From Bacteroidia bacterium (lineage in GTDB: Bacteria; Bacteroidota; Bacteroidia; 2-12-FULL-35-15): a DNA stretch of 64,000 nucleotides. The notes under the pieces were generated by a model. That model was not told the origin of the DNA. It searched no databases and saw only the letters and a list, made by a program, of their open reading frames with translations. Below, one piece after another: positions 25,771-55,330 of this stretch. Every line of letters starts with the position of its first letter. Position 1 is the first letter of the stretch. Made by a program: the position numbers and the translations under genes. The stretch is taken from assembly GCA_045805205.1 (NCBI GenBank), contig JBJMLR010000011.1, positions 467,803-531,802 of the forward strand, given 5' to 3'.

Positions 25771-25808
25771 CTGCATCGCTGTCACCCGATGGAGCGAAGT
25801 CGAAATGC
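25771..25808 (+). repeat. Dispersed hairpin-repeat family copy (gtcaccc...gagcgaagtcgaa)
   Basis: Seen directly; see findings. Confidence 0.6.
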
Positions 25809-25834
25809 ACGATAATTTTCCACAAAGAAAGCTG

Positions 25835-25903
25835 GTTAGAACGTCACCCTGCATCGCCGTCGGTAAGCCTTTGGCGGCTAATGGACCGGAGTCGAGACAT
25901 TGT
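25835..25903 (+). repeat. Dispersed repeat copy (ggttagaacgtcaccctgcatcgcc...ggagtcgag)
   Basis: Seen directly. Confidence 0.6.
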
Positions 25904-25928
25904 GATAATCATTGCAAAAAGAAAACCC

Positions 25929-25964
25929 GGTTAGAACGTCACCCTGAGCGAAGTCGAAGGGTAG
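25929..25964 (+). repeat. Dispersed repeat copy (ggttagaacgtcaccctgagcgaagtcgaagggtag) abutting the GIY-YIG stop codon
   Basis: Seen directly. Confidence 0.65.
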
Positions 25965-25965
25965 A

Positions 25966-26285
25966 TCATTTGAGGTCGTGATGTGTCTCGTTTTTGCAGA
26001 TTGATAACTCTTTAATTCGTGACCAATTCGCTTCGATCAAAGCCTGCTTTTTTGCTCTGCTCCATTCTTTTACCTTCTTTTCAAATGCAATTGCTGAGGT
26101 GGGATCAGGAAACGTTTCATAATACATCAGCTCCACCGGCCTCCGTTCGTAAGTGTACGATCTTTATGGTATCCGCAATGATGTTGTGTCAGCCGGACTT
26201 CAAGATTACTCGTAACGCCCGTGTAATATGATTTATCGGAACAAAGTAAAATATAAACAAACATGTTTGAAATTTTTCTTTTCAT
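25966..26285 (-). pseudogene. GIY-YIG nuclease family protein (YhbQ/UPF0213-like, about 105 aa) with an apparent -1 frameshift
   Basis: Minus-strand frame 1: MKRKISNMFVYILLCSDKSYYTGVTSNLEVRLTQHHCGYHKDRTLTNGGRWS*, which carries the GIY-YIG hallmark. The C-terminal half continues in another frame (RPVELMYYETFPDPTSAIAFEKKVKEWSRAKKQALIEANW...DLK*). The shift is near 26135-26145. It is absent from the ORF track because both pieces are under 60 aa. Confidence 0.6.
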
Positions 26286-26291
26286 TTTTTT

Positions 26292-26355
26292 AACCGGCCG
26301 CCCTTCGACTCCGCTCCTCCGCTCGCTGAAGCTCAGCGAAGGCGATGCAGGGTGA
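26292..26355 (-). repeat. Dispersed repeat copy in inverse orientation (aaccggccgcccttcgactccgc...cagggtgac) directly upstream of the GIY-YIG start
   Basis: Reverse complement reads gtcaccctgcatcgcc...ggagtcgaagggcggccggtt, then aaaaaa, then ATG. Confidence 0.65.
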
Positions 26356-26406
26356 CTTATAATTGTAATGTGAGTTGTAAAAACAACCTCTTAATTTCTT
26401 AGTGTG

Positions 26407-26435
26407 CTGAGTGCCTTAGTGGTGAAATAAGTCAT
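26407..26435 (+). repeat. 29-bp cttagtg...cttagtggtgaa element in the asd 3' UTR
   Basis: Near-identical to 33347-33375 (3 mismatches). A related inverted copy is at 33187-33225. Confidence 0.55.
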
Positions 26436-26440
26436 GAAGA

Positions 26441-27427
26441 TTAAATCATCTTCTTTCCCATCAAATACTCCGCAATCTGGATCGCATTGGTAGCGGCACC
26501 TTTTCGCAAATTATCCGATACAACCCACATGTTCAGCGTTTTTTCCTGTGTCTCATCACGGCGAAGTCTTCCCACAAACACCTCATCCTTATCGTGTGCA
26601 TCCATTGGCATCGGATATTTCAGGTTCTTCACATCATCTACCAAAATAACACCCGGCGCGTGATGCAGCAATGAACGAACTTCATTCATATCGAATTCCT
26701 TTTCAAACTCAACGTTCATGCTTTCGCTGTGTCCGCCCATCACCGGAATGCGAACGGTTGTTGCAGTTACCCGGATATTCTTATCGAGGATCTTCTTCGT
26801 TTCATTCACCATTTTCATCTCCTCTTTTGTATAATCGTTTTCGGTAAAAACATCGATATGAGGAATCACATTCAGATCGATCGGATAAGCATAAGCCATG
26901 TTCCCCTTCACACCTTTTCGTTCATTCATCAGCTGCTCAACCGCTTTCACCCCTGTTCCGGTTACCGATTGGTAAGTAGAAACAACAACACGCAGTACAT
27001 TGTATTTTTTGTGAAGCGGTGCAAGTGCCACAACCATTTGTATAGTGGAACAGTTTGGATTTGCGATGATCTTATCTGCTGCTGTAAGTTCATCTGCATT
27101 GATCTCCGGTACAACCAGCTTTTTCGCGGGGTCCATTCTCCAGGCAGAAGAGTTATCGATCACCGTGATCCCCGCTTCCGCGAATTTCGGTGCCCATTCC
27201 AGCGAAGTGCTTCCGCCCGCCGAGAACAATGCCACATTCGGTTTCATGTCGATAGCCGTCTGCATCCCCACCACCTTGAACTTTTTACCCTTATAGGAAA
27301 CTTCCTTCCCGATCGATTTTTCAGATGCGACAGGAATTAACTCCGTTACGGGGAAATTACGTTCTTCCAGTACCTGGATCATTTTGGTGCCTACCAGCCC
27401 GGTGGCTCCGACTACTGCTACTTTCAT
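26441..27427 (-). CDS. asd: Aspartate-semialdehyde dehydrogenase
   Basis: MKVAVVGATGLVG... NAD-binding N-terminus; 328 aa overall; the active-site region (..SGAG..C..) has the Asd pattern. Confidence 0.9.
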   Translation of the reverse strand: MKVAVVGATGLVGTKMIQVLEERNFPVTELIPVASEKSIGKEVSYKGKKFKVVGMQTAIDMKPNVALFSAGGSTSLEWAPKFAEAGITVIDNSSAWRMDPAKKLVVPEINADELTAADKIIANPNCSTIQMVVALAPLHKKYNVLRVVVSTYQSVTGTGVKAVEQLMNERKGVKGNMAYAYPIDLNVIPHIDVFTENDYTKEEMKMVNETKKILDKNIRVTATTVRIPVMGGHSESMNVEFEKEFDMNEVRSLLHHAPGVILVDDVKNLKYPMPMDAHDKDEVFVGRLRRDETQEKTLNMWVVSDNLRKGAATNAIQIAEYLMGKKMI

Positions 27428-27521
27428 GTTGTGTTGTTGTTTATGTTAAATTATCGCTGTTGTCTATATAAATCCTCATATTTCATTTTTGGATAAGCGG
27501 AACGATCACGTTCCCTGCTAA

Positions 27522-27550
27522 ATAAAAAAGGCCTCTCCATCCGGAAAGGC
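27522..27550 (-). terminator. Intrinsic terminator (9-bp stem ggcctttcc/ggagaggcc plus T6) in the asd leader, 95 bp upstream of the asd start
   Basis: Hairpin plus U-tract read on the minus strand. Confidence 0.6.
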
Positions 27551-27582
27551 CCTTGTGCTATACAATATCATATAAAACACTA

Positions 27583-27633
27583 CTGAACCTTTCCATTATG
27601 GAAACGTTTCTTGCCGTGCTTTTTATTTTTCAT
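27583..27633 (-). promoter_or_regulatory. Lys-rich 17-codon mini-ORF (MKNKKHGKKRFHNGKVQ) in the asd leader; candidate leader peptide
   Basis: An ATG with TAGATTTG (a TAnnTTTG -7-like box) about 20 nt upstream; 6 Lys codons; its 3' end contains ggaaagg, which is complementary to the terminator 5' arm. Confidence 0.35.
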
Positions 27634-27753
27634 AGTTAAATTCACTGCTGCAAATCTATAACGTTTTTCCCAATTGCCAACCATCGGTCGATAAATATTT
27701 AAACGTTTCTTAACTCCTGCCTGTCGGGTTTTTGCTATTTTTACGGGAGATAG

Positions 27754-30700
27754 ATGAAACGCATTCTCACCATACTTTTTTCCTTCTTTTCGCTGCTGGC
27801 GGGAGCCCAGGTCACTGATAATTTCAGCGACGGCGACTTTACCGCTTCGCCAGCCTGGAGCGGGGACGGGACGGAATTCATCATTAATGCCTCCCAGCAG
27901 CTGCAGCTCAATAATTCCGTTGCCGGAGCCAGCTACCTTTCTACAGCCAGCCCGGGCTCCTCGATCGATAACTTTCAGTGGAGCTTTTATATCAAGCAGA
28001 GCTTTGCGCCTTCCGGAAGCAACTACGGCAGGGTTTATCTTGTATCCGATCAGGCGAACCTGGAAGGATCGCTCAACGGTTATTACCTGCAATTCGGTGA
28101 AGCCGGAAGCCTGGATGCTGTTGAGCTCTTTCGCCAAACCGGCCTGGCCAGCACTTCGGTCTGCAGAGGCACGAACGGTGAAATTGCCGCTTCATTTGCT
28201 CTCGGAGTGAAAGTGACCCGCGACGCATCCGGGAACTGGAGCCTCTATGTGGATCCTGCCGGGGGAACAACGTATTCACTGGAAGCATCGGGAACTGATC
28301 TGACCTATTCCGCCAGCAGCTTTTTCGGTGTGGCATGTGTGTATACCGTCAGTTCTGCGACAAAATTCTATTTCGATGATTTTTATAACGGAGCCATCAT
28401 TGTAGACACAACTCCTCCGTCAATTACTTCCTCAACCGTAATTTCTGTCACCCAGCTTGATGTTTTGTTCAGCGAGAATGTGGACCTAACCACCTCGCAG
28501 GTACTCACAAATTACAGCGCGGATAATGGTCTTGGAAATCCGACAGCCGCTGCACGCGACGCATCAAACCTCAGTCTCGTTCATCTCACCTGGGGAACAG
28601 CATTTACCGGAAGCCTGCTGAACACGCTTACCGTTACAAATGTGCAGGACCTTAGCGGAAATGCGATCACTTCCGCAACTACAACGTTCACCTACATCGC
28701 GCCTGTAACACCCGCATACAAAGACATTATCCTCAATGAGATCTTTGCAGATCCGAGCCCGGTGATCGGACTTCCGGGCTTTGAATTTGTGGAGCTTTAT
28801 AACCGCAGCCCGAACACATACGACGTTAACGGATGGAAATTCTCCGACGGAACTACGACATCGACGATCGGGAGCTTCATCCTGGCTCCCGGCCAATACC
28901 TGATCCTGTGTCCGATCGCGGACACTGCCTCTTTCACACCTTATGGAAATACGAAAGGACTCAGCAGCTTTCCTTCGCTTAACAATACCGGCGATAACCT
29001 GAAGCTGCTGGATAATACGCTTGCCGCGATCGACTCCGTGGATTATTCAGACACCTGGTACCAGGATGCAGTCAAGAAAAATGGAGGCTGGACGCTCGAA
29101 TTGATCAACCCGAATCTTTCCGCGTCCTGTCCTGCTGTCAGCAACTGGATCGCCTCCGTTGATCCATCGGGCGGAACCCCCGGAACTGTGAACAGCGTTT
29201 TTTCTTCAACACCCGATGTCACCTCTCCAACGATCGCAAGCGTTACCGTTGTGGATTCCACGCACCTCACCGTATGTTTCAGCGAAGCGCTCAATCCTTC
29301 CCAGATAGGGATCGCAGCAAATTATTCCATCAGCGCAGGGATCGGAATGCCGGTATCAGCAACTGCGAATGCGGCACTTACCTGCGTGGATCTTGTATTG
29401 TCCACCGCACTGAGCACATCCGCAACGTATACGCTATCGATCACTTCCACGGGCGATTGCTCCGGAAATCCGCTGACACCGGCAAGTACGAGCTTCTCAT
29501 TCTATAATGTCCAGCCGTACGACATTGTGATCAATGAAATTATGGCCGATCCGGATCCGGTAGTAACAATATTGCCCGACTATGAATATGTCGAACTATA
29601 TAACCGAACTGCATTTCCCGTCAACCTTAATAACTGGACCTTCGCTGCTGGTACAAATGTCAAGGTATTGCCTTCGCTGATCGTTCCGGCGGATAGCTTT
29701 ATCGTGCTCACTTCTTTGTCCGGCCTTGCAGGAATGCCCTCAGGCATCAACGCTTATGCGCTGGCAAGCTTTCCTGCGCTGACCAATACCGGCCAGATAC
29801 TTACATTGAGAAGTCCGCAGGGAAATGTGATCTCAACCGTTTCCTATACGGATGACTGGTACCAGGATGCCGCGAAAAAAGATGGTGGCTGGAGTCTTGA
29901 GCAGATCGATCCCGCCAATCCCTGTGCAGGAATGAGTAATTGGCATGCATCAAACAGTTCCAACGGAGGGACGCCGGGTTTCCGGAACTCTGTTTATGCA
30001 GCGAATCCTGATCACACTCCGCCGCAAGTAGTGCGTGTCAGCGTAGTTGCCAATGACACGATCCAGGTGTATTTTAATGAACCGCTCGATAGTGCTTCAA
30101 TGCTAGCCGCAGCAATTTATACCATCGATAATGGAATTGGGAATCCCACGTTTGTCAACGTGATCGGGCCGGATTTTAAAAGTGTGAGACTGGCACTGGG
30201 AAGCAGTCTTGCGGTCGGAACGATTTATACGATCACTGTAAATAATGCAATTACAGATTGTGTTGGAAATGCTTTGGGGACGGATAATTCTGCAAAGTTC
30301 GCAATTCCTGAACAGGCGATGCCCGGCGACATTGTGATCAATGAGATCCTTTTTGATCCCAGAACACCGGGTGTTGATTTTGTGGAGATCTATAATCGCT
30401 CCGGCAAAGTGATCGATCTTAAAACGATGACGCTTTCACAATACGATACGGTCACAAATACGATCATTAGTCCCGAAACGATCTCAGCCGATGGATATCT
30501 CATTTTTCCCGGCGACTACATCGTGTTAAGCGAGAACGGAGCTGTTGTCAGAAGCCAGTACAGCACACCAAATCCAGAAGGTTTTATTGACATGGACAAT
30601 CTGCCGTCGATGAATATCGATAAAGGAACGGTATGTCTTTCTACTTCGACTGATATCATTGACAATTTCAAATATTACGCAGATATGCAATTCGGATTAT

Positions 30701-31164
30701 TGACCGACACAAAAGGCATTTCGCTTGAACGGATCGATTTTGATCGTCCGACGCAGGATCGCACGAACTGGCATTCTGCTGCGGAAGCGGTTGGTTTTGC
30801 GACGCCGGCGTATAAGAATTCGCAGTACAACGATGCAGGCGAAACCGAAAGCGCAATTGAAATAACCCCCGAGGTTTTTTCGCCGGATGAAGATGGGATG
30901 AATGATGTGGTGAACATTAATTATCATTTTGATACACCCGGCTTCACCGGAAACCTCACCATCTATGACAGCAAAGGGCGTGTTGTGAAGCTGCTTGTCA
31001 GGAATGAATTGCTGGGTATTAAAGGAACATTCTCCTGGGACGGGATCGATGATAACCGGGAAAAGGCCCGCATCGGTATTTACGTTATCTACTTCGAAGT
31101 ATTTGATCTCAATGGAAATGTAAAGCGCTACAAAAAAACCTGTGTGCTTGGCGGAAAGCTTTAA
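27754..31164 (+). CDS. Secreted protein with three lamin-tail (LTD) domains and a T9SS type B C-terminal sorting domain
   Basis: Repeated ILNEIFADPSP...EFVELYNRS...VNGWKFSDG motifs (LTD) and a C-terminus ...FSPDEDGMNDVVNINYHFDTPGFTGNLTIYDSKGRVVKLL...GIYVIYFEV (CHU_C-like). Confidence 0.75.
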   Translation: MKRILTILFSFFSLLAGAQVTDNFSDGDFTASPAWSGDGTEFIINASQQLQLNNSVAGASYLSTASPGSSIDNFQWSFYIKQSFAPSGSNYGRVYLVSDQANLEGSLNGYYLQFGEAGSLDAVELFRQTGLASTSVCRGTNGEIAASFALGVKVTRDASGNWSLYVDPAGGTTYSLEASGTDLTYSASSFFGVACVYTVSSATKFYFDDFYNGAIIVDTTPPSITSSTVISVTQLDVLFSENVDLTTSQVLTNYSADNGLGNPTAAARDASNLSLVHLTWGTAFTGSLLNTLTVTNVQDLSGNAITSATTTFTYIAPVTPAYKDIILNEIFADPSPVIGLPGFEFVELYNRSPNTYDVNGWKFSDGTTTSTIGSFILAPGQYLILCPIADTASFTPYGNTKGLSSFPSLNNTGDNLKLLDNTLAAIDSVDYSDTWYQDAVKKNGGWTLELINPNLSASCPAVSNWIASVDPSGGTPGTVNSVFSSTPDVTSPTIASVTVVDSTHLTVCFSEALNPSQIGIAANYSISAGIGMPVSATANAALTCVDLVLSTALSTSATYTLSITSTGDCSGNPLTPASTSFSFYNVQPYDIVINEIMADPDPVVTILPDYEYVELYNRTAFPVNLNNWTFAAGTNVKVLPSLIVPADSFIVLTSLSGLAGMPSGINAYALASFPALTNTGQILTLRSPQGNVISTVSYTDDWYQDAAKKDGGWSLEQIDPANPCAGMSNWHASNSSNGGTPGFRNSVYAANPDHTPPQVVRVSVVANDTIQVYFNEPLDSASMLAAAIYTIDNGIGNPTFVNVIGPDFKSVRLALGSSLAVGTIYTITVNNAITDCVGNALGTDNSAKFAIPEQAMPGDIVINEILFDPRTPGVDFVEIYNRSGKVIDLKTMTLSQYDTVTNTIISPETISADGYLIFPGDYIVLSENGAVVRSQYSTPNPEGFIDMDNLPSMNIDKGTVCLSTSTDIIDNFKYYADMQFGLLTDTKGISLERIDFDRPTQDRTNWHSAAEAVGFATPAYKNSQYNDAGETESAIEITPEVFSPDEDGMNDVVNINYHFDTPGFTGNLTIYDSKGRVVKLLVRNELLGIKGTFSWDGIDDNREKARIGIYVIYFEVFDLNGNVKRYKKTCVLGGKL

Positions 31165-31703
31165 TCCATGAAGGTTAGCGCATCCACCCGCTGATCCGGG
31201 TTTTCTTTCAGTAATTCCTTCTCCATTCTGTAATCTGCCGGTAGCTTCCAGGCAAGGAAAAACGCGATCCCGGCTGCAGTGATCGTAATGAAAAGAAAGC
31301 CAATAAAAACAGCTTTTGAATCCGGATTAAAGTAAAAGATATTCCTTACGAATGATATCGCCATAAATCCGCCGGTGATCAAATGTCCGTCCGGCCGGTA
31401 TTTCAAGCAGAGATAGACGAGAAAGACACAGAGAGGAACTGCGGTAATTGGAAAAATTTCAAAGCCTGCGCCGATAAGGCTTCCGGCGTTGATAGAAAAG
31501 GTGCAGACGAGCAGAAATAGCAATAGGTAATTCAGCAAGCTGTATTTCTTTCGTTTCGCCGGTGTAACAATCTTACGGATATGATCTGCTATCTGATGGA
31601 TCGGATGCTCGGTATGATAAGCGATCTCATTATATATTTCCTGGTGTGTTCTTCCCTTCAGGATTTCTTCTTCCGCCTTCTGTACTATATTTTTTGCCAT
31701 CAC
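31161..31703 (-). CDS. Hypothetical integral membrane protein
   Basis: 180 aa with 4 predicted TM helices. Its end overlaps the converging lamin-tail gene end by 4 bp. Confidence 0.5.
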   Translation of the reverse strand: MMAKNIVQKAEEEILKGRTHQEIYNEIAYHTEHPIHQIADHIRKIVTPAKRKKYSLLNYLLLFLLVCTFSINAGSLIGAGFEIFPITAVPLCVFLVYLCLKYRPDGHLITGGFMAISFVRNIFYFNPDSKAVFIGFLFITITAAGIAFFLAWKLPADYRMEKELLKENPDQRVDALTFMD

Positions 31704-31718
31704 CCGAGCACTTTAACA

Positions 31719-33164
31719 CTATTTCAATTTAATACAAACGTTCTTCGGTTCCGTGAAAAAATCAAGCGCTTCAAATCCGCCTTCACGGCCCACACCCGAG
31801 CTCTTCACACCTCCGAAAGGTGTTCTCAGATCGCGAAGCAGCCAGCAATTGATCCAAACAATTCCAGCATGTAAATTACTTGCAACACGATGCGCTTTTG
31901 TGAGATGCTCCGTCCACACGATGGAAGCAAGTCCGTATTGGGTTGCATTTGCATAACCAAGCACTTCTTCTTCGGTATCAAAAGGCATGATCGTTACTAC
32001 CGGTCCGAAGATCTCTTCCATATTTGTCCTGCAATTATGCGGCAGCCCTTCGATGATCGTTGGGGCGATATAATATCCGCCGGCTAGTTCTCCATCCAAT
32101 TTTACCTGGTGACCACCGGCAATCACTTTTCCGCCTTCCTGTTGTGCAAGCTCAATATACGAAAGCACTTTTTCCATGTGTGGCTTTGAAACAACGGCTC
32201 CCAGCTTAGTATCTTCTGCCGTCGGATCTCCGACCTTCAGTTTTTTAACTCGTTCCACGAACTCATTTTTGAATTTCTCATAAATCGGCCGTTCAATGAA
32301 AATGCGGGAACCGCAAAGACAGATCTGTCCCTGGTTTGCAAATGAGGATTGCAGAGTCATCCGGACTGCTTTTTCAAAATCGCAATCTGCGAAAATGATA
32401 TTCGGGTTTTTTCCACCGAGTTCTAACGACAGTTTTTTGAACATCGGAGCAGCGACTTTGGCAATTTCGGCGCCTGTTTTTGTCCCGCCGGTAAAGGAGA
32501 TCAGCGGGATCTTTGGGTGAGCGGTGATCGCGGCACCTACTTTATGTCCATATCCGTGAACGATATTCAAAACCCCTTTCGGTAATCCGGCTTCAATACA
32601 TAATTCAGAAAGCAGGTAAGCGGTCATTGGAGTGATCTCCGAAGGCTTTGCCACCACACAATTTCCCGAAGCAATAGCCGGAGCGATCTTCCATGTAAAT
32701 AAATAGAGCGGGAGGTTCCAGGGAGAAATGCAGCCCGCAACGCCAACAGGAGTGCGGAGTGTGTAGTTGATCGCCGTATCTTCCATTGCATGGCTTGCAG
32801 CTGCATAATGAAGAATGCCGGTTGCATAAAAATGAAAATTCGCGGCTGCACGGGGAATGTCGACTGCTTTTGCAAGAGAAACCGGCTTGCCGTTATCAGT
32901 TGATTCAGCAATGGAGAGACGGTCCAGGTTCTTTTCGATCAATGCTGAGATCTTCAACATGATGCGGGAGCGTTCGTCTTTTGGAGTATTGCTCCAACCC
33001 GGGAATGCCGCAGCAGCGGCTTTTACCGCAAGCTCAACATCCTCTGCGCCGGAATCCGGGATCAGCGAGTATACTTTCCCTGTTGCAGGGTTGTAGTTAT
33101 CGATGTATTGTTTTCCAACCGGTTCGATGAGCTCACCGTTGATGTAGTTTTTTATCTTTTGCAT
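31719..33164 (-). CDS. NAD(P)-dependent aldehyde dehydrogenase family protein
   Basis: 481 aa with GGKNPNIIFADCD, the catalytic Cys region (QGQICLCGSR) and ELGGK, the ALDH hallmarks. Confidence 0.9.
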   Translation of the reverse strand: MQKIKNYINGELIEPVGKQYIDNYNPATGKVYSLIPDSGAEDVELAVKAAAAAFPGWSNTPKDERSRIMLKISALIEKNLDRLSIAESTDNGKPVSLAKAVDIPRAAANFHFYATGILHYAAASHAMEDTAINYTLRTPVGVAGCISPWNLPLYLFTWKIAPAIASGNCVVAKPSEITPMTAYLLSELCIEAGLPKGVLNIVHGYGHKVGAAITAHPKIPLISFTGGTKTGAEIAKVAAPMFKKLSLELGGKNPNIIFADCDFEKAVRMTLQSSFANQGQICLCGSRIFIERPIYEKFKNEFVERVKKLKVGDPTAEDTKLGAVVSKPHMEKVLSYIELAQQEGGKVIAGGHQVKLDGELAGGYYIAPTIIEGLPHNCRTNMEEIFGPVVTIMPFDTEEEVLGYANATQYGLASIVWTEHLTKAHRVASNLHAGIVWINCWLLRDLRTPFGGVKSSGVGREGGFEALDFFTEPKNVCIKLK

Positions 33165-33186
33165 GTTTCTTTACCACTAAGACACT

Positions 33187-33225
33187 GAGTCCACTTAGGT
33201 TCACTAAGTCCGGTGTTTTTTATAT
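33187..33225 (-). repeat. Inverted copy of the cttagtg...cttagtggtaa element
   Basis: Reverse complement is cttagtgaacctaagtggactcagtgtcttagtggtaa. Confidence 0.5.
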
Positions 33226-33261
33226 TCCACTGCTCTCGTGTTCTATTTCGATCAAATTTAC

Positions 33262-33298
33262 AGAAAATAAAATAAAAAGAGGCCCTCCCGAGCCTCTT
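33262..33298 (-). terminator. Intrinsic terminator for the minus-strand T9SS-CTD gene (agaggc-tcgggagg-gcctct plus TTTTATTTTATTTT)
   Basis: Hairpin plus U-tract on the minus strand. Confidence 0.55.
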
Positions 33299-33346
33299 TC
33301 AGATACTTCTTAACCACGACAACGCTATGTCCACCGTTAGCCACGG

Positions 33347-33375
33347 CTTAGTGTTCTTAGTGCCTTAGTGGTGAA
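33347..33375 (+). repeat. 29-bp cttagtgttcttagtgccttagtggtgaa element in the 3' UTR
   Basis: Matches 26407-26435. Confidence 0.55.
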
Positions 33376-33407
33376 TTTTTTCTTCGGATATACGATCTGC
33401 ATTTTAG

Positions 33408-34130
33408 TTAATCAACCACGATCTTCTCACTCGTCGATTTTTTATCCTGGATCAGGTTCAGGAAATAAGTTCCTTTCTTACCCAGTGGGATCTCCTTGCT
33501 GTATTTGCTTCCATCTTTTTGAGTATCATAGAAGACCTGCTTACCGTTTTCATCAAGAACACTGATGTTCAGCGGCGATTTGCTGCCGGTTTCAATTTCA
33601 ATTTTGGCAGTCGTATTCTTCACGTTGATATTGAGGTTCATGTGTTCCTTCTCTTCTTTCCCGTCAGTAACCCGGATCGTTTTTGTGATCACCTTCTTCT
33701 CTCCCTTATCCCCTTTATCACCCTTTTCCCCCTTATCCCTTTTATCACCCTTGTCATCCTTTTTTTTGATGATGATCTTTGTTTCACCTCCATGCTCATC
33801 GGTATTCACCTCGATATCCTGATCATCACCATCCCCGGTACTATAAGCATACGCCATTGCTTTTGCATCATCTGCATTTTCTCCCCTGATAACGATCTTC
33901 TTTACGATCTTTTTTGTTGAATCTCCGTCTGCGCTGATCGTAACATTGATGTCTTTCATCATTTTGTTGATCTCTTTTCCGTCCGGGCCATCACTTTCAC
34001 TGATGGTGGTATCACCGTTAATGATCGTGATAGTTTTAGTTTTCATTTTCGAATCCTGTGCGCAGGAAACAATGCTGAGACTGAGCAACGCAGCCATTCC
34101 CAGGAAACCGGTAATGTAGTTTGTTTTCAT
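33408..34130 (-). CDS. Lipoprotein with a Lys/Asp/Gly-rich repeat region and a T9SS type A C-terminal sorting domain
   Basis: Lipobox ...SIVSC after the signal peptide (start assumed at MKTNY). A KGDKGEKGDKGDKGEK stretch. The C-terminus ...SPLNISVLDENGKQVFYDTQ...GTYFLNLIQDK... is Por_Secre_tail-like. Confidence 0.6.
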   Translation of the reverse strand: MKTNYITGFLGMAALLSLSIVSCAQDSKMKTKTITIINGDTTISESDGPDGKEINKMMKDINVTISADGDSTKKIVKKIVIRGENADDAKAMAYAYSTGDGDDQDIEVNTDEHGGETKIIIKKKDDKGDKRDKGEKGDKGDKGEKKVITKTIRVTDGKEEKEHMNLNINVKNTTAKIEIETGSKSPLNISVLDENGKQVFYDTQKDGSKYSKEIPLGKKGTYFLNLIQDKKSTSEKIVVD

Positions 34131-34321
34131 TTCTTTTTGTTTTTTCCACTGAAGCTTAAGCATCGGCGGGTTAGGTGAATACTATTGAGATGATCGTCGG
34201 AGCATTTGTGTGACAAACATATGCCAGGCGGCAGCAACCCCGTGTTAAAGCCCTGTTAATCGCTGTTAAATAATGTTAAGGTACGGTCCGAAGGCTGCCG
34301 ATCCCTTATTTTTGCTGGTAT

Positions 34322-35932: not shown

Positions 35933-35950
35933 AATCATTATTTTGGTAAT

Positions 35951-36646: not shown

Positions 36647-36673
36647 CCAGGATGTAATATTTGGTATCTGATA

Positions 36674-36703
36674 GGTAATATTCCGGAGCATCTGAATATT
36701 ACC
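36674..36703 (+). terminator. Hairpin (10-bp stem ggtaatattc/gaatattacc) between convergent genes
   Basis: Seen directly. Confidence 0.45.
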
Positions 36704-36712
36704 TGTTAAATA

Positions 36713-37225: not shown

Positions 37226-37258
37226 ACTATTTATTTTGTAGTTAAGGGGTTCATTAAT

Positions 37259-39623: not shown

Positions 39624-39640
39624 GAATCAAACAGAAAAAT

Positions 39641-41485: not shown

Positions 41486-41530
41486 GTCCGACCCGAACTC
41501 CCTTCGACTTCTTTCAGGACAAGCTTCCCG
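41483..41530 (-). repeat. 11-nt duplicate of the tRNA-Gln 3' end (gttgtccgacc) fused to a dispersed-repeat copy (cccttcgacttc...)
   Basis: gttgtccgacc at 41483-41493 equals 41583-41593. It is followed by cgaac and the reverse-oriented gagtcgaaggg motif. Confidence 0.55.
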
Positions 41531-41544
41531 CGAAAGTATTCAAA

Positions 41545-41578: not shown

Positions 41579-41583
41579 TTAAG

Positions 41584-41656: not shown

Positions 41657-41699
41657 GTGTACGCCGTAGCTTTAGCGAAGGCGTGCTGTAATTTACCGG

Positions 41700-41743
41700 C
41701 TCCCGGGTCACCTCCGCGGAGGCTTCGGCGACCGAAGGGCTGC
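41700..41743 (+). repeat. Dispersed repeat copy (gtcacctccgcggaggcttcggcgaccgaagggctgc) upstream of tRNA-Gln
   Basis: Seen directly. Confidence 0.55.
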
Positions 41744-45018: not shown

Positions 45019-45024
45019 TTCAAA

Positions 45025-45056
45025 AGCCCCGTATCAATCATGCGGGGCTTTTTTAT
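45025..45056 (+). terminator. Intrinsic terminator (agccccg...cggggct plus T6)
   Basis: Seen directly. Confidence 0.7.
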
Positions 45057-45066
45057 GACCTGAGCC

Positions 45067-45678: not shown

Positions 45679-45693
45679 AAAATTGTTGAGCAG

Positions 45694-46482: not shown

Positions 46483-46493
46483 AGATAGAGATT

Positions 46494-49325: not shown

Positions 49326-49894
49326 TTCCTTCGCAGCGGGATGTAAGTCTTCCCGTTCTCGATCACAATATGCCCTTGCTCTTCCAGGCTTTTCACGATC
49401 TCATGAAAAAGTTCGTTGATCAGGGTGCTGTCTTTTTTCCAGAAATGAACCGTACAAGCCTTGATCGAATCGTCGATCCTTTCGATCTTGTGGAAGGCCA
49501 TCCTGCCAAGGTAAAACACAACCAGCTCCGATTTAAGCTGCAGCCTTTCCGCATCAATTGAGGACCGCTGTTCTTTTTTGGCATCTTCCTTTTTCAGGCC
49601 GTCCACCCGCCGTACGGCCCATCCGGTTCCGCCCGTAATGGCGCCGCAGCTAAAGCGCATTCCGTGCTTTTTCTCGATGTAACGGACCAATGTGCTGGGA
49701 CTTGCTTTTCGGTTCCAGTCCTTTTGCTCGATCAGCAGTGCTTCGCCTACTTTAAGATTGACGATTGAATTGAAAACATGCGAACTGCGTCCTTTTCCAC
49801 GGATCGGGAGCTGTTCATATTCATCTGAACTTAGTTTTTTCATGGGGGAGCCACTTTTCTGTTGAAAACCAATTAAAAGTACTTTTTTTGTCAA
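49322..49894 (-). CDS. Hypothetical protein
   Basis: 190-aa ORF, basic, with no motif recognised. It overlaps the CHAT gene end by 4 bp. Confidence 0.45.
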   Translation of the reverse strand: MTKKVLLIGFQQKSGSPMKKLSSDEYEQLPIRGKGRSSHVFNSIVNLKVGEALLIEQKDWNRKASPSTLVRYIEKKHGMRFSCGAITGGTGWAVRRVDGLKKEDAKKEQRSSIDAERLQLKSELVVFYLGRMAFHKIERIDDSIKACTVHFWKKDSTLINELFHEIVKSLEEQGHIVIENGKTYIPLRRN

Positions 49895-50080
49895 AAATGT
49901 TCAATCATCCGGATTTAAACTTATAAACACTTCGTTTTTAATAAGATATCAAGGCTATTAAATCGTCTTTAAATATTGTTTAACATAGCAATACAGCCTG
50001 AAATCGTTAAAATTATGCGATTTCTGAGAAGATGAACCATTTTTAAGGGAAGCCCGCCGAAAGGATCTCCGGGGCTGTTT

Positions 50081-50500
50081 TCAGGAATGCTTTTTTTGAA
50101 AAAGCATCGCTACATAGGTTTCGGGCACCGCAAGCGACGAACGGCAATAGGTCAGCTTATCCTGAATGGAAAGGGGAAAATCCTGCACGACTTTAAAGTC
50201 AAAAGGAAGAAAAAATTCGGGGATCACACATACCAGGTGAACATCACCAGGAGCCCGCCGGATCAGCTCCTGCACGATCGCCCGTCCGATCCCTTGGCGG
50301 CGGTGCGGTGTAACAACACCGAGTGAACAAAGCTCAACACAATCGGAATGGTTCCGTAAACGGCCAAAGCCGATCAGCTCATTTTGGCGGAAGGCAGCGC
50401 TGAACTCCTCTTTTTTCAATAAACGGTCATCCAGTTCAAAATCCCGGATATAATTCCCGATCTGCTGGAACTCATGATCATTTGGAGCCCGTAGTTCCAT
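50081..50500 (-). CDS. GNAT-family N-acetyltransferase
   Basis: RRQGIGRAIVQELIRRA is an acetyl-CoA binding motif A-like segment; 139 aa. Confidence 0.75.
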   Translation of the reverse strand: MELRAPNDHEFQQIGNYIRDFELDDRLLKKEEFSAAFRQNELIGFGRLRNHSDCVELCSLGVVTPHRRQGIGRAIVQELIRRAPGDVHLVCVIPEFFLPFDFKVVQDFPLSIQDKLTYCRSSLAVPETYVAMLFQKKHS

Positions 50501-50557
50501 GAAAGCAGTAAGCAGCTTAACAATTATTCAATTGAAAAGCTGCCTGCTGCAAATTAT

Positions 50558-51064
50558 TTAGTGGTGATGTCCGTGTTCACCGTGAACGTGACCATGGGAG
50601 ATTTCTTCAGCGGTCGCTTTGCGCACATCCAGAATCTCGCCCTTGAAATGAAGATCCGTTCCCGCAAGCGGATGATTGAAATCCATTTTTACATGTTCTG
50701 CAGTGATCTCCATCACTTTTCCATATAAACGGTTCCCGTCATTGTCAACCATTGGTAATGTTACTCCTGCTTTCACGTTCTCAGAATCAAATTTACCGTC
50801 TTCACCCTGGAAAGCTTCGCTTGGGATCATCACAACATGCTGTTCGTCACGTACACCGTATCCTCGTGAATGTTCGATAAAAAAATCAAATGAGTCACCC
50901 GCTTTTTTCCCGCGGAGATTAGATTCGAAATCTTCCAGCAGTCCTCCCGCACCAAAAAGGAATACAAATGGATGTTCTTTGCTGGTTTTTTCGATCTGTT
51001 CGCCCGTTTCTTTTGCTGTAAGATCATAATCCACAGAAACAACGGTGTTATTTTCAATTGTCAT
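50558..51064 (-). CDS. slyD: FKBP-type peptidyl-prolyl isomerase SlyD-like, with a His-rich tail
   Basis: FKBP fold motifs plus an IF-domain insertion. The C-terminus is HGHVHGEHGHHH. Confidence 0.8.
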   Translation of the reverse strand: MTIENNTVVSVDYDLTAKETGEQIEKTSKEHPFVFLFGAGGLLEDFESNLRGKKAGDSFDFFIEHSRGYGVRDEQHVVMIPSEAFQGEDGKFDSENVKAGVTLPMVDNDGNRLYGKVMEITAEHVKMDFNHPLAGTDLHFKGEILDVRKATAEEISHGHVHGEHGHHH

Positions 51065-51188
51065 GTAAATGGTTTTTAAAATTTAGGCCGCAAAGATATA
51101 CTTTTATAGCAATAAAACATTTTGCCAGCTGCTAAATAAGCCTAAAAATGAAGCGATTGCCATGTCCGGGGAACTTTTTAACTTTAGC

Positions 51189-51322
51189 ACACTTAGTCAC
51201 CTAATCACTTAGTCACCCAGTCACCTAATCACTTAGTCACCCAGTCACATAATCACTTAGTCACCCAGTCACCTAATCACTTAGTCACCCAGTCACCTAA
51301 CCACCCAGTCACCTAATCACTC
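51189..51322 (+). repeat. Tandem array of about 5.5 copies of a 24-bp unit (cacttagtcacccagtcacctaat) ending 3 nt before the start codon of the next gene
   Basis: Seen directly. Confidence 0.85.
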
Positions 51323-51325
51323 CAA

Positions 51326-52480
51326 ATGAACTACCCGAACCTGATCAACAGCAAGCTCCCCAATGCAGGGACCACCATTTTTACGGTTATGAGCAAGCTC
51401 GCGGCGGATCATAATGCGATCAATCTTTCACAGGGCTTCCCTGATTTCAGCTGCAGCGAGGAAATGATCTCGCTTGTAAATAAATACATGAAGACCGGAC
51501 ATAACCAGTATGCTCCTATGGCCGGAATATTTGCGCTTCGTGAAATGCTGGCTCAGAAAACCGAAGACCTTTACGGCGCTAAATACGATCCCGAAACAGA
51601 AATTACTATTACAGCCGGCGCTACACAGGCCATTTATACAGCTATCTCGGCGATCATCCGGGAAGATGATGAAGTGATCATCTTTGAACCGGCATATGAT
51701 TGTTACCAGCCGGCAATTGAAATGAACGGCGGCAAAACGATCTATATGCAGCTCCAGTCACCTGCTTATTCCATCGACTGGGAGAAGGTGAAAAAGATGA
51801 TCAATCACCGTACAAAAATGATCATTATCAATACCCCGCATAATCCAACCGGGAGCGTAATGTCCGCCGGCGATATGAGCAGCCTGGAGAAGCTGGTGAA
51901 AGGAACGGATATTGTGATCATCAGTGATGAAGTATATGAGCACATTATTTTTGACGGACAAAAGCATCAGAGTGTTGCCCGTTTTCCGGGTCTCGCGGAA
52001 CGAAGTTTTATTATTTCCTCCTTTGGGAAAACCTATCATACTACCGGCTGGAAGCTGGGCTATTGCGTGGCACCGAAAAACCTGATGGCGGAATTCCGGA
52101 AAGTACATCAGTTCCTGGTTTTTTCCTGCAATACACCCATTCAGATGGCCCTTTCGGAATTCCTGAAGCAAAAGGAAAATTACCTTGAGCTGGGAAATTT
52201 TTATCAGAAGAAACGCGATCATTTCATCAGCCTGATCAGGAATTCGAAATTTGAGTTTGTCAAATCGCCCGGGACCTATTTTCAGCTGCTGAGTTATAAA
52301 AATGTCAGTAAAGAAAAGGATACCGATTATGCGGTCCGCCTGACAAAAGAATCCGGACTGGCGTCTGTGCCCATTTCCGTATTCTATCATGAGCAGGAAG
52401 ACAATCACATGCTGCGCTTCTGCTTCGCGAAGAAGGATGAAACACTTGAAAAAGCAGCGGAAATATTAAATAAGATCTGA
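51326..52480 (+). CDS. ybdL: PLP-dependent aminotransferase, YbdL-like methionine/glutamine transaminase
   Basis: SKLPNAGTTIFTVMSKLAADHNAINLSQGFPDF matches the YbdL N-terminus; class I aminotransferase length. Confidence 0.8.
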   Translation: MNYPNLINSKLPNAGTTIFTVMSKLAADHNAINLSQGFPDFSCSEEMISLVNKYMKTGHNQYAPMAGIFALREMLAQKTEDLYGAKYDPETEITITAGATQAIYTAISAIIREDDEVIIFEPAYDCYQPAIEMNGGKTIYMQLQSPAYSIDWEKVKKMINHRTKMIIINTPHNPTGSVMSAGDMSSLEKLVKGTDIVIISDEVYEHIIFDGQKHQSVARFPGLAERSFIISSFGKTYHTTGWKLGYCVAPKNLMAEFRKVHQFLVFSCNTPIQMALSEFLKQKENYLELGNFYQKKRDHFISLIRNSKFEFVKSPGTYFQLLSYKNVSKEKDTDYAVRLTKESGLASVPISVFYHEQEDNHMLRFCFAKKDETLEKAAEILNKI

Positions 52481-52488
52481 TTTCAGCG

Positions 52489-52570
52489 CGTCATTGAGAC
52501 TGCGCGTCGCCATAGCTTTAGCGGTGGCACAGTGAGATATGAACGAAGCAGTCTTAATATGCAGATTGCC
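52489..52570 (+). repeat. Hairpin repeat element (gcgtcattgagactgcgc...gcagtcttaat) flanked by duplicated gene 3' ends
   Basis: 11-bp imperfect stem attgagactgc/gcagtcttaat. It shares gcc(a/g)tagctttagcg with 41663-41686. Confidence 0.5.
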
Positions 52571-52572
52571 AC

Positions 52573-52618
52573 GCTTCGCAAAAAGGATGAAAACTTGAAG
52601 AAGCAGCGGAAATTTAAA
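52573..52618 (+). repeat. About 46-bp imperfect duplicate (about 88%) of the ybdL 3' coding end (52423-52469)
   Basis: cttcgcaaaaaggatgaaaacttgaagaagcagcggaaatttaaat versus cttcgcgaagaaggatgaaacacttgaaaaagcagcggaaatattaaat. Confidence 0.7.
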
Positions 52619-52642
52619 TCGGATATAATATCAGCTTATTTT

Positions 52643-52678
52643 GGCGTCACCCCGCGCGGAGTCAAAGGGTGGCCGGTC
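52643..52678 (+). repeat. Dispersed repeat copy (ggcgtcaccccgcgcggagtcaaagggtggccggtc)
   Basis: Seen directly. Confidence 0.6.
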
Positions 52679-52694
52679 TTGAACTAATTCAACA

Positions 52695-53480
52695 ATGCAA
52701 AACCTCACCATCACCCTCATCCAGACCGATCTTCACTGGGAAGATAAAGTAAAGAACCTCGAAATGTTCGCGGCAAAGATCGCTTCCATCGCCGGTCATA
52801 CCGATCTCATTGTGCTTCCTGAAATGTTCACCACGGGGTTCAGCATGCGCCCCGGGCTGTTTGCAGAAAAAATGGACGGCGCAACAGTCAGCTGGATGCG
52901 TTATCGCGCGCGAGAGAAGAGCTGCGTCATCACCGGGAGCTTCATTTGTGAAGAGAACGGGAATTATTTTAATCGCCTTGTCTGGATGCGCGCCGATGGC
53001 TCATATGAGACCTATGATAAACGCCATCTTTTCAGAATGGGAGAGGAAGATAAACATTATGGCGCGGGACAAAAGCGGCTGATCGTTGAGCTGAACGGCT
53101 GGAAAGTTTGTCCGCTGGTTTGTTACGACCTTCGTTTCCCGGTATGGAGCCGGAATCAAAAGCAAGATCCATATGACCTGCTCATATACATAGCGAACTG
53201 GCCGGAGCGTCGTGCGCATCCATGGAAATCATTGCTTGTGGCCAGAGCGATCGAAAACCAATGTTTTGTGGCGGGTTTGAACCGGATCGGAAACGACGGC
53301 AATTCAATTTATCACGCCGGAGATTCCGCCGTTCTTAATTTCAAAGGCGAATCCATCAGCGCAATAGAAACCGGAAAGGAATGTGCAGATACGTATATAC
53401 TGAAGTATGATGAATTGATGGAATTCAGAAAAATATTTCCGGTAATGCTGGACGCAGATGATTTTGACGTCAAACTCTAG
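52695..53480 (+). CDS. yafV: Carbon-nitrogen hydrolase (nitrilase superfamily), YafV-like omega-amidase
   Basis: E-K-C triad context (VLPEMF, ...RKIHL/KRHLF, CYDLRFP); 261 aa. Adjacent to the ybdL-like gene. Confidence 0.8.
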   Translation: MQNLTITLIQTDLHWEDKVKNLEMFAAKIASIAGHTDLIVLPEMFTTGFSMRPGLFAEKMDGATVSWMRYRAREKSCVITGSFICEENGNYFNRLVWMRADGSYETYDKRHLFRMGEEDKHYGAGQKRLIVELNGWKVCPLVCYDLRFPVWSRNQKQDPYDLLIYIANWPERRAHPWKSLLVARAIENQCFVAGLNRIGNDGNSIYHAGDSAVLNFKGESISAIETGKECADTYILKYDELMEFRKIFPVMLDADDFDVKL

Positions 53481-53483
53481 TGG

Positions 53484-53530
53484 CGTCATTGCGAGAAAGG
53501 CTTTGCCTGACGCGGCAATCTCGAAAACGG
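53484..53530 (+). repeat. Hairpin repeat (ggcgtcattgcgagaaaggctttgcctgacgcggcaatctcg)
   Basis: Stem gcgtca/tgacgc plus attgc/gcaat. It shares the ggcgtcatt start with 52489. Confidence 0.5.
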
Positions 53531-53534
53531 AATA

Positions 53535-55268
53535 CTAGTCTGCCACTTTCCACTCCAGCTCCGCGTCCCAGTTTGAGCGAATGTTGATCGTCTCTGCATC
53601 AAAAACAACTTTTTCCGGCTGGATCTTCTGTAAATAATTTCCGCTGTCCCACTTCCCGTTATTGTTTCCGTCGTAAATGATCTTTAAGCGGTATTTTCCC
53701 GGAGGCAGATAATCATATTCAACCGCACCCGGTGCCCTTTCAATGCTTTCCCTGATCACTTTGCCGCTTTCATTCACGAGCTGTATGATATGTCTGAAAT
53801 CATCAGTGAGATTTGGCAGCGACACTTTTACCGTTCCGTAGTATTTTTCTTCGCGTGTTTTAAAATTGACCTTGATCGAATCATTTGTCAACCCGAAGAA
53901 ATCTTCAAATGTCCCCGGAGGAATAAAAAAATGATAATTTGTATTCTCTTTCCAATCGGTAAAAAGCATCGCGGTAGGCGCTTTTACATATTCGCCGGGA
54001 TGCTCCGGATCTTCAGCAAGCATGGTTGTATCGATCGTACATAATTTCAACTCATCACCCGGCACGAACCAGGAAACAAATTCAGGTTCACCTGCCGCTG
54101 TTTTTACCGGTACAGTATCTGCTTTTAGTCCGGCGTGGATCCATTTATCCAGCCGAACAGGATGGTTGAACCGCAAGCCAAGCGTGCTTCCCAGGTCAAA
54201 GCTTTGGTTGCCGTCCGGGCTGCTGATCGCTTTTAATTTAAATGGATTCTTTTTTGATTTCTTCGCTTCATCGAGCGTAACGAGTTTGATACGCAGCGTA
54301 TCCATTACTTTAGTGCCGTTTCTCAGTTCCAGGATCAGCGAATCTTTCTGGAAATTTTTAAACCAGTAAATGACGCTGTCTTTGTCTTTAGAATACTCAA
54401 CGTACTCCTGAACCCCTTTGTCGGTATTGTTCAGCGGATTCAAATGCAAGCTGTCCGATCCCTGGTTCAGATAAAGTGAAACCTTCCCATACGTATCATG
54501 CACATATTTTTTCAGGAATGTTTTTTTCGCCGGCTCCCGGAACAGGTCTACCATGATCTCTTTTTTCTCTGTAACATCTACCGGCGCATTTAAGAAGCCG
54601 ATCATCTCGCTTTCACCGTCATATTTATAATTCGAGTTCACATCTTTCACTGCAACCAGTCTGTACCTTCCGGCACGGAGATTTCTCAGGTTAAAAGAGC
54701 CGTCACTCAGTGTTTTTGCAAAATAATCGGGTTGTCCGGTGAACACAGTGCTATCGCTCATATCGCTGTACAGCATTACCACAACACCTTCCATGCTGCT
54801 GAGATCAAAGGCGTTTTCAACTCGTCCTTTCAGGCTCAGTGAATCGATGAAATTTCCCGTAGAAAAAATATAGCGGAAATCTTTCAGCGGGTTATTTTCA
54901 TTCAGATCCTGGATCGCATTCCCGAAGTTGATACTGTATGTGGTGTTCGGTTTTAGCTCTTCGCTTTTATCCAGTGAAATGCTGAGTGTTTTGTTCTTTA
55001 CGGAGATCTCGGGTGATTTTTTTAGCGGAGGAGAGATGATCAGCTGTGTATTCAGATCTTTCAGCTGGATGAATTCATTAAAGTCGATCAGGATGTTCTT
55101 TGAGTTGAAATTAAGCTGCGCACTGTCAGGATTGTACTTCAGCGGCTTCGGCGCGAACGTGTCTTTGGGACCGCCGCCCGGTGCTACGACTTGCGCGCAC
55201 GCTGTGAGCAGGAGCGTCAGAATCGGCAAACAGGTATATGTGACAGTGAGTGTTCTAATGGTGCGCAT
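53535..55268 (-). CDS. Hypothetical lipoprotein with Ig-like / beta-sandwich domains
   Basis: Lipobox LLLTAC after the signal peptide. 577 aa, beta-rich, no catalytic motif. Confidence 0.45.
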   Translation of the reverse strand: MRTIRTLTVTYTCLPILTLLLTACAQVVAPGGGPKDTFAPKPLKYNPDSAQLNFNSKNILIDFNEFIQLKDLNTQLIISPPLKKSPEISVKNKTLSISLDKSEELKPNTTYSINFGNAIQDLNENNPLKDFRYIFSTGNFIDSLSLKGRVENAFDLSSMEGVVVMLYSDMSDSTVFTGQPDYFAKTLSDGSFNLRNLRAGRYRLVAVKDVNSNYKYDGESEMIGFLNAPVDVTEKKEIMVDLFREPAKKTFLKKYVHDTYGKVSLYLNQGSDSLHLNPLNNTDKGVQEYVEYSKDKDSVIYWFKNFQKDSLILELRNGTKVMDTLRIKLVTLDEAKKSKKNPFKLKAISSPDGNQSFDLGSTLGLRFNHPVRLDKWIHAGLKADTVPVKTAAGEPEFVSWFVPGDELKLCTIDTTMLAEDPEHPGEYVKAPTAMLFTDWKENTNYHFFIPPGTFEDFFGLTNDSIKVNFKTREEKYYGTVKVSLPNLTDDFRHIIQLVNESGKVIRESIERAPGAVEYDYLPPGKYRLKIIYDGNNNGKWDSGNYLQKIQPEKVVFDAETINIRSNWDAELEWKVAD

Positions 55269-55293
55269 TTTCCTTTGATCGTATCTGCATCCC

Positions 55294-55330
55294 GAACGTC
55301 ACCCGGCGGAGTCAGGGGCGGCCGGTTGAC
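55294..55330 (+). repeat. Dispersed repeat copy (gaacgtcacccggcggagtcaggggcggccggttgac)
   Basis: Seen directly. Confidence 0.6.

Follow-up and report, generated by a model that had tools for sequence, protein, structure and literature searches.

What kind of repeat recurs between the genes of this chromosomal stretch, and which gene, if any, does it accompany? The stretch is a piece of 64,000 nt from contig JBJMLR010000011.1 of a Bacteroidia bacterium (hereafter the window; 45% G+C, a Bacteroidota-like composition), for which the original prediction, made from the letters alone, had proposed a dispersed intergenic family of at least ten copies with conserved GTCACCC and GGCCGG ends. The repeat is real and the listed sequences are present at their positions, but inspection finds their quality very uneven and the good copies fewer than ten. 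What the original prediction overlooked is a GIY-YIG nuclease pseudogene ringed by four of the copies, which we call A–D. Following this gene into other genomes, we found a tagged hairpin whose stem covaries, which is linked to the nuclease gene in a definite orientation, is organised like the BIMEs (bacterial interspersed mosaic elements) and REPINs (doublets of repetitive extragenic palindromic, REP, sequences) of other bacteria, is also scattered without the gene, differs between close relatives and pairs its loop type with a type of protein.

The 680-bp gap between lspA (25060-25761, plus strand) and asd (26441-27427, minus strand) contains the nuclease gene on the minus strand (25966-26285). 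It would encode a UPF0213/Slx1-like GIY-YIG protein of ∼100 aa, and it is split by an apparent frameshift between ∼26136 and 26163 into two open reading frames (ORFs), 26127-26285 and 25966-26136, which overlap and which tblastn matches as pieces in two frames. The joined protein matches Pfam PF01541 (E=7e-18), and both Pfam and profile searches describe a stand-alone single domain. Homologs have 97-129 aa and 47-66% identity to it, the catalytic Tyr, Tyr, Arg, His and Glu (Y4, Y14, R24, H28, E63) are conserved in the family alignment, and the family profile finds PDB entries 1zg2 (2e-20) and 1ywl (5e-16) and, weakly, SLX1. The first two, the closest solved relatives, are uncharacterised UPF0213 structures. 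At E<=1e-3 the family comprises 7,844 clusters at 50% identity; NCBIfam has no named family for the nuclease. A phage origin was considered and rejected: no PHROG family matched the protein, and phage matches are distant ones in Rhizobium and Staphylococcus phages only.

Two hairpins bracket this gene. Copy D (26301-26356, minus) lies upstream on the gene strand, its end 15-36 nt short of the candidate start codons. It has canonical ends, matched by the regular expression GTCA-N4...CGA-rc(N4), where rc is the reverse complement, and reads GTCA-CCCT, a 32-nt insert, GAGCGGAGTCGA-AGGG and then a local tail CGGCCGG; the insert separates the 5′ stem arm from the loop and has a hairpin of its own (TCGCTGA/TCAGCGA). 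Copy C (25938-25961, plus), on the strand opposite to the gene, starts 4 nt past the nuclease stop codon with its head directed away from the gene. It is fully canonical (GTCACCCTGAGCGAAGTCGAAGGG, laid out as GTCA-CCCT-GAGCGAAGTCGA-AGGG), is also matched by the regular expression, and reaches 36.4 bits (E=2e-8) with a covariance model, R1, that was built from motif copies of other genomes and then run on the window; in copy D this model matches the loop only. The GTCA heads of D and C thus point outwards, 419 bp apart. Beyond C follow two eroded copies, first B and then A. Copy B (25843-25899, plus) shares its head GTCACCCTGCATCGCC with D, has an internal GGAGTCGA, has lost its 3′ stem arm (GACA) and matches D in inverted orientation over 26 nt at 88%. 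Copy A (25781-25807, plus) keeps the GTCACCC head and the exact GAGCGAAGTCGA loop (a loop-only R1 match of 10.7 bits), while its 3′ stem arm is lost and the arms are no longer complementary. A leader of 35 nt is present twice, at 25817-25851 and at 25912-25946. Copies A, B and C stand in direct orientation, and neither inverted doublets nor alternating arrays are seen within the window. The sequences at 25771-26355, which had been listed among dispersed copies, therefore belong to one cluster around a gene at 25.8-26.4 kb. The window shows a decaying instance of the system: a broken gene, one good hairpin on each side, two eroded extras and, further away, a few degenerate solo copies.

Some homologs end in C-terminal tails ('...SPSTTLRVT', '...SLRLRSD') that are the translated reverse complement of the motif, and this gave the first hint that motif and gene go together in other genomes. 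The repeats may also be the source of the familiar junk-ORF peptides '...SLSKG' and 'PFDKLR...'. A homolog scan that took one genome for each species yielded at least 581 relatives, of which the best 80 loci (1.26 Mb) were analysed; Bacteroidota supply most of them, and Alpha- and Betaproteobacteria, Myxococcota and Ignavibacteriota a few. In nearly all of them the 140 nt downstream of the gene have a common architecture. With the strict pattern GTCA-N4-(8-16 nt ending CGA)-revcomp(N4), the motif being also written GTCA-N4-GAG...CGA-N4′, copies number 3.6/kb at less than 100 nt from the gene and 2.0/kb in the zone of 100-250 nt, falling to 0.004-0.03/kb at distances above 1 kb; four matches in total came from shuffled loci. 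R1 finds 245 matches in the 80 loci, most of them, by reading of the table, within ∼1 kb of the gene.

The linkage is oriented. On the upstream side, the copy closest to the gene shares its strand in 40 loci and lies on the other in 11; on the downstream side, the closest copy is opposite to the gene in 36 loci and has its strand in 16. Full bracketing is seen in 26 of 72 loci. The gaps have medians of 53 and 34 nt. The arrangement of D, gene and C in the window agrees with this geometry of outward heads. Proteobacterial loci, two of them on large plasmids or chromids, have a like layout with the heads GTTCA, GTTA or (G/C)CTCA, and Myxococcota also show it with altered heads. The gene itself is chromosomal and intergenic, in unrelated contexts in different genera: only loci of the same genus have neighbours in common, and 16 of 3,160 locus pairs share at least two neighbour families. 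None of the loci examined showed a REP-associated tyrosine transposase (RAYT). A link to tRNA genes was also considered and rejected (four tRNAs in 52 loci, none adjoining the focal gene).

The unit so defined is a 24-nt core in which a tag, a 4-bp stem of free sequence and a conserved loop of 11-12 nt follow one another. We collected 163 copies by a pattern that fixes only GTCA, GAG[CT] and [GC][TC]CGA and does not ask the two N4 segments to pair. Among them 127 have four Watson-Crick pairs and a further 29 have three, with at least 20 fully complementary stem variants. In an alignment of 86 sequences each of the four stem positions is paired in 94-99% of copies and shows 11-48 double-sided changes; shuffles of this alignment never reach the observed covariation, and as a control, sliding the partner by 1-3 columns lowers pairing to 27-49%. 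The covariance model and covariation check that the original prediction had suggested thus come out in favour of a structured stem, and copy C is recognised by a model from other genomes. The tag extends beyond the letters fixed by the pattern, since T precedes GTCA in 140 of the 163 copies at a base left free; in four window copies this base is C. The loop reads GAGCGNAGTCGA in the genome of the window and GAGC-N2-3-G(T/C)CGA in general, so that what had been described as a variable insert of 3-50 nt is in fact a conserved loop that sometimes has an insertion. From its conserved letters we infer that the loop may form tandem sheared G.A pairs and a C-GNA-G mini-loop that closes the helix.

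Loop type goes with the protein. In 24 of 24 motif-bearing loci, nucleases with a CxNx[ST] tail have the 12-nt loop GAGCGNAGTCGA beside them; those with an LPxLAKK tail have GAGTG-(hairpin)-TATCGA in 17 of 17; those with a KKEALF tail mostly have the 11-nt loop GAGCYTGTCGA (chi-square p = 8e-20, uncorrected for phylogeny). The window follows the first rule, its nuclease ending in CKNET and its copies carrying the 12-nt loop. In Flavobacterium both protein classes are present, each with its own loop type. As read from these sequences, the C-terminal tail would be a recognition determinant.

Copies without a gene are far more numerous. A metagenome scan for TGTCANNNTGAGCGNAGTCGAA gave at least 120 loci with 149 matches, 130 of which have a perfect stem, and a nuclease is encoded in only two of the 120 motif-selected loci listed. 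Most of these copies are intergenic: 112 of the 149 lie outside ORFs of at least 120 aa, though such ORFs make up 87% of the sequence. Half of them have a neighbour no more than 300 nt away, and the dominant pairing is tail-to-tail with a gap of 17-43 nt (mode 22-25 nt); in most of the listed doublets the two arms share the variable loop base and differ in the stem. Between co-directional genes, solo copies favour neither strand (14 on the same strand, 19 on the opposite one). Near many genes, in turn, copies form arrays of tandem composite units of 128-161 nt, each with two inverted copies of different stems; the alternating inverted arrangement is seen in loci L059, L075 and L006 and in the metagenome doublets, and in L059 and L075 the gene of the array occupies the tail-to-tail spacer. 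The pair that brackets a gene thus looks like a doublet with a gene in its spacer. An array alternating two variants is the organisation of the BIMEs of E. coli (PMC2817692), and the excess of gene-less copies over genes is like the excess of REPINs over RAYTs.

Close relatives differ in which copies they have. Those with ∼90% identical asd (L081-L085) have the order asd - DUF218 - lspA; in the window the nuclease and repeat cluster (25762-26440) stands in place of DUF218, no remnant of which was found there by tblastn, and copies A–D are absent from this site in the relatives. Locus L081 has an extra 199-aa ORF between asd and lspA. Relatives L086 and L087 keep the gene order aminotransferase - amidohydrolase - Big_5 - GAF but lack the more distant window copies G and H, described below, and both GTCATTG hairpins; in L086 the 214-nt spacer that holds the longer of these hairpins is missing, and the aminotransferase and amidohydrolase genes overlap. 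The relatives' spacers carry other GTCA-tagged hairpins instead, including the spacer orthologous to 53485-53520. On the question whether copies are polymorphic, then, A–D, G and H are missing at orthologous sites of relatives. An intragenic canonical copy lies in the 3′ tail of lspA in L082 (4872-4903), L083 (2855-2886) and L084/L085 (4888-4919), where R1 scores it at 30-40 bits and it is translated as ...DTSTPLNVT... in a variable C-terminal tail; it is missing from the window and from L081, and a decayed orthologous copy inside the lspA tail of the window, considered as a candidate, was rejected as unsupported by the alignment (A5). In the 94% identical genomes of L039 and L047, L039 has a second nuclease unit and L047 has none, and the paralogous units of L039 can be aligned only from hairpin to hairpin, over 383 nt.

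With the motif defined, the remaining copies of the window can be judged. Copy G (52646-52676, plus; R1 match 52646-52669, 13.4 bits, E=0.14) is a solo degenerate copy, GTCACCCCGCGCGGAGTCAAAGGG followed by the tail TGGCCGG, between the aminotransferase and amidohydrolase genes. Copy H (55298-55325, plus; GTCACCCGGCGGAGTCAGGGGCGGCCGG), also solo and degenerate, folds as CGTCA.CCGGC...GCCGG.TGACG and lies between the Big_5 and GAF genes; D, G and H have the local tail GGG(C/T)GGCCGG in common. Copy E (41500-41520, minus), downstream of tRNA-Gln, is a probable relic, GTC--CTGAAAGAAGTCGAAGGG with an exact AGTCGAAGGG, that R1 does not detect. Copy F (41707-41739, plus; GTCACCT...CGAAGGG), upstream of the same tRNA gene, is a doubtful member with only three complementary stem positions, missed by both the regular expression and R1. 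Counted by quality, two copies of the window are canonical, one of them with a 32-nt insert, four are degenerate and two are doubtful relics, about 6-8 per 64 kb. The full end pattern GAGTCRARGGGYGGCCGG matches only twice. The exact 10-mer AGTCGAAGGG occurs three times, counting both strands of the window, against ∼0.1 expected by chance (128 kb), and GTCACCC 14 times against 3.4 expected; four of these 14 are inside genes and four come from an unrelated tandem repeat at 51190-51320. The latter, a 24-nt unit AGTCACCTAATCACTTAGTCACCC in 5.2 copies with 93% matches (periods of 8 and 16 nt can also be read), stops 5 nt before the aminotransferase start codon and is missing from the orthologous spacer of L086 and L087; it inflates the GTCACCC count and has nothing to do with the hairpin family.

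The suggestion that the GTCATTG hairpins are related holds up, as both have GTCA, a stem arm of 4-5 nt, GAG... and a complementary arm. The long one (52490-52558, plus) reads CGTC-ATTGAGACTGC ... GAACGAA-GCAGTCTTAAT by sequence and fold, and the other (53485-53520, plus), GTCA-TTGC-GAG...-GCAA-TC, has the tag and stem layout of the family with a different loop. The claim that copies lie beside both tRNA genes survives only for the doubtful relics E and F at tRNA-Gln; the hairpin at tRNA-Ala (18545-18569) belongs to another family. This second small family, (C)CGCC-(G/A)TAGCTTTAGCG..-GGCG(G), has copies at 41662-41683, 18545-18569 and 52508-52528, adjoins the 5′ side of both tRNA genes (folding z = -1.8 and -2.2 for the two copies there), and has its third copy nested inside the long hairpin 52490-52558.

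Which known system does this resemble? REP and BIME sequences with their RAYT, and REPINs (PMC2817692, PMC3116915), are likewise short, tagged, imperfect palindromes in extragenic positions, form inverted doublets and arrays alternating two variants, and in the REPtron an enzyme gene is flanked by inverted copies, with non-coding copies far outnumbering genes. Their tag, however, is GTAG and not (T/C)GTCA, and unlike them our motif has a stem of 4-5 bp and a long conserved loop. RAYT is an HUH/Y1 transposase like those of IS200/IS605, whereas the gene flanked here encodes a GIY-YIG hydrolytic nuclease, and for this reason we do not file the motif as a classical REP. Closer in tag are the CGTC-1 to CGTC-4 REPs of Di Nocera et al. 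(2013), found in Alphaproteobacteria, Bacteroidetes and Chlorobi, which form inverted dimers, have a terminal CGTC/TGTC tag beside a hairpin and 'apparently lack a dedicated transposase' (PMC3733652). By their published description they have stems of 8-9 bp starting A-T, loops of 4-5 nt and a CCA tail (PMC3733652), against the 4-bp stem, the 11-12 nt loop and no CCA tail here. The motif belongs to neither group and is REP-like in layout. [quoted passage not shown] The REP/MITE-like part of the original prediction is partly borne out, in that the repeat is a tagged hairpin with compensatory stem changes, intergenic, found in inverted doublets and arrays and differing between relatives. As for the protein, I-TevI, the Seg homing endonucleases and SLX1 have its catalytic fold, the homing enzymes being selfish and SLX1 structure-specific; compared with GIY-YIG homing endonucleases, this nuclease is single-domain, lacks a NUMOD or zinc-finger module for DNA binding and stands in neither an intron nor a phage context. 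In the literature, with subscription-only journals outside our coverage, no paper links GIY-YIG or UPF0213 proteins with REP, RAYT, REPIN, BIME or MITE, and none contains the motif strings.

Our preferred explanation, and probably the right one, is a REP/BIME-like hairpin element acting at the DNA level, with a GIY-YIG nuclease as its partner in place of RAYT. The unit would consist of the (T/C)GTCA tag, a free 4-bp stem, the conserved loop and the complementary arm, and the partner would be the stand-alone UPF0213/Slx1-like nuclease of ∼100 aa, with one hairpin on each side and tags outward; the gene-less version would have the same two ends ∼24 nt apart, which is the commonest paired form among the scattered copies. 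The nuclease may recognise the hairpin, extruded or single-stranded, through tag and loop, while the stem would need only to pair. We infer that it nicks beside the hairpin and that the host propagates the units: replication or recombinational repair would copy hairpin-bounded units to new intergenic sites, and the same repair route would expand and shrink the arrays.

Several points weigh against this explanation. Its mechanism (cleavage, binding and transposition) is wholly inferred. A stem of 4 bp has little strength, and the folding of single copies does not surpass that of shuffled sequence (DNA folding z-scores of -2.2 to +0.9, energies being little informative for so short a stem). The association of tail and loop ignores phylogeny. 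In the window only the A–D cluster adjoins the gene, and the gene is broken. No target-site duplication was seen at doublet flanks or at the L039/L047 site, nor a clean junction between empty and filled sites, the L039/L047 site having extra non-homologous bases on both sides. In Sphingomonadales the position of the gene, between nrdR and an RNA methyltransferase gene, is conserved, and this resembles vertical inheritance more than mobility. The arrangement was noted in L209 (1495-2543), where the nuclease gene overlaps the methyltransferase gene by 4 nt, and, downstream of the nuclease gene, in L068 and L077. GIY-YIG enzymes are not known to rejoin strands, and since they hydrolyse DNA, a RAYT-like single-strand cut-and-paste is unlikely; the nuclease cannot be a self-sufficient transposase as RAYT is. 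Hydrolysis of DNA is attributed to these enzymes in a review of the superfamily, which also reports an Slx1-type GIY-YIG domain fused to a SPOUT methyltransferase (PMC1564403).

The main rival, which fits the same data, is a parasite of the homing type: the doublets would spread independently, and a free-standing GIY-YIG nuclease would cut the empty spacer and be copied into it by repair from a filled doublet. The gene does sit exactly in the tail-to-tail spacer of the array unit, empty doublets with spacers of ∼24 nt are common, paralogous units are homologous only between the hairpins, repair-dependent copying suits a hydrolytic nuclease, and GIY-YIG homing endonucleases are an established class (PMC1564403). 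We nevertheless consider it rather unlikely, as the protein is a bare catalytic domain of 100 aa that lacks the separate DNA-binding module of homing enzymes, whatever spreads the doublets is left unexplained, and only ∼1-2% of motif sites are filled among the metagenome loci listed. That the loop type tracks the protein subfamily is predicted by either model.

Models of host function and of RNA fit less well than these two. In the former, the hairpins would serve the host as BIME-like sites for protein binding, supercoiling or transcript ends, and UPF0213 would be a repair nuclease that trims hairpins or cruciforms and is only loosely linked to them. Members of the protein family have been regarded as putative repair nucleases, with one copy in Caulobacter having an SOS box (PMC1839093), SLX1 is a structure-specific nuclease, and the synteny in Sphingomonadales is conserved. 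Such a role leaves unexplained the more than 100-fold concentration of hairpins at both ends of the gene, their outward orientation and the hairpin-to-hairpin paralogy, and sits poorly with a gene found in unrelated contexts across genera and as a pseudogene in the window, which makes it improbable.

A structured RNA, whether a cis-regulatory element of the 5′ untranslated region, a 3′ stabiliser of the nuclease mRNA or a small RNA, would account for the covarying stem and for the upstream copy, which lies in sense, 15-90 nt ahead of the start codon. The downstream copy, in contrast, is antisense, arrays alternate in orientation, solo copies are without strand bias relative to their neighbours, and there is no U-tract. 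Nor is there any Rfam match to the motif: none reaches the gathering threshold, whether in the window or in 16 related loci, and none appears at E<=10 over 25700-26450. These findings, with the unremarkable folding energies of single copies, speak against the structured-RNA family that had been offered as the second option in the original prediction, and we regard it as very improbable. The sole Rfam match in the 16 loci is a Flavo-1 RNA (45 bits; L030 9024-9093, Pedobacter miscanthi); it lies ∼9 kb away from the nuclease gene and has no relation to the motif. Chance similarity or a compositional artefact, suggested by the weak copies E, F, G and H and by folding z-scores near zero, is scarcely credible given the match of copy C to a model from other phyla, the over-represented exact 10-mers and the massive covariation and gene linkage in other loci; it is refuted for copies A–D and possible for F.

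Some further repeats of the window stand apart from the hairpin family. A perfect 26-nt palindrome, (G)AGGTGGTCGCAA(A/T)TTGCGACCACCT(C), has two copies 224 nt apart, one (61448-61473) within the minus-strand ORF 61144-61680 and the other (61698-61723) just upstream of the start of this ORF, where a T-run comes next; the palindrome could act as operator or terminator. ORF 23951-24883 consists mostly of Lys/Ala/Pro-rich repeats of the AKKAAPKK type (DNA periods of 15, 27 and 36 nt), and its product resembles a histone H1-like protein. Direct-repeat pairs are found at 15472-15516/18350-18394 (45 nt, 78%), with a hairpin-like TTTCC..GGAAAT segment near gene ends, and at 18049-18101/18185-18237 (53 nt, 85%). 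A 9-nt periodic repeat of the CCCTTATCC type (33696-33763) inside the minus-strand ORF 33408-34163 would be translated into a repeated tripeptide, Gly-Asp/Glu-Lys.

REP-type repeats rank with the most abundant non-coding elements of bacteria, and to our knowledge only those of the GTAG class have a known enzyme, RAYT. The partnership of nuclease and repeat described here appears to be undescribed so far and widespread. A broader proposal, which we put forward tentatively and hold to be slightly more doubtful than probable, is that small UPF0213 GIY-YIG proteins are the dedicated partners of tagged hairpin repeats in several phyla, a second system of the REP/RAYT kind that is independent of HUH enzymes. 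An enzyme of 100 aa that recognises a defined hairpin could serve as a reagent. If the link holds, it would also account for many of the spurious C-terminal extensions and of the junk ORFs that Bacteroidota annotations contain, and it would provide a testable candidate enzyme for the CGTC/TGTC-tagged REPs that were left without one (PMC3733652). It would likewise give a role to a large uncharacterised protein family, and it suggests that a purely hydrolytic nuclease may sustain a family of repeats by way of host repair, unlike the transposition carried out by HUH enzymes.

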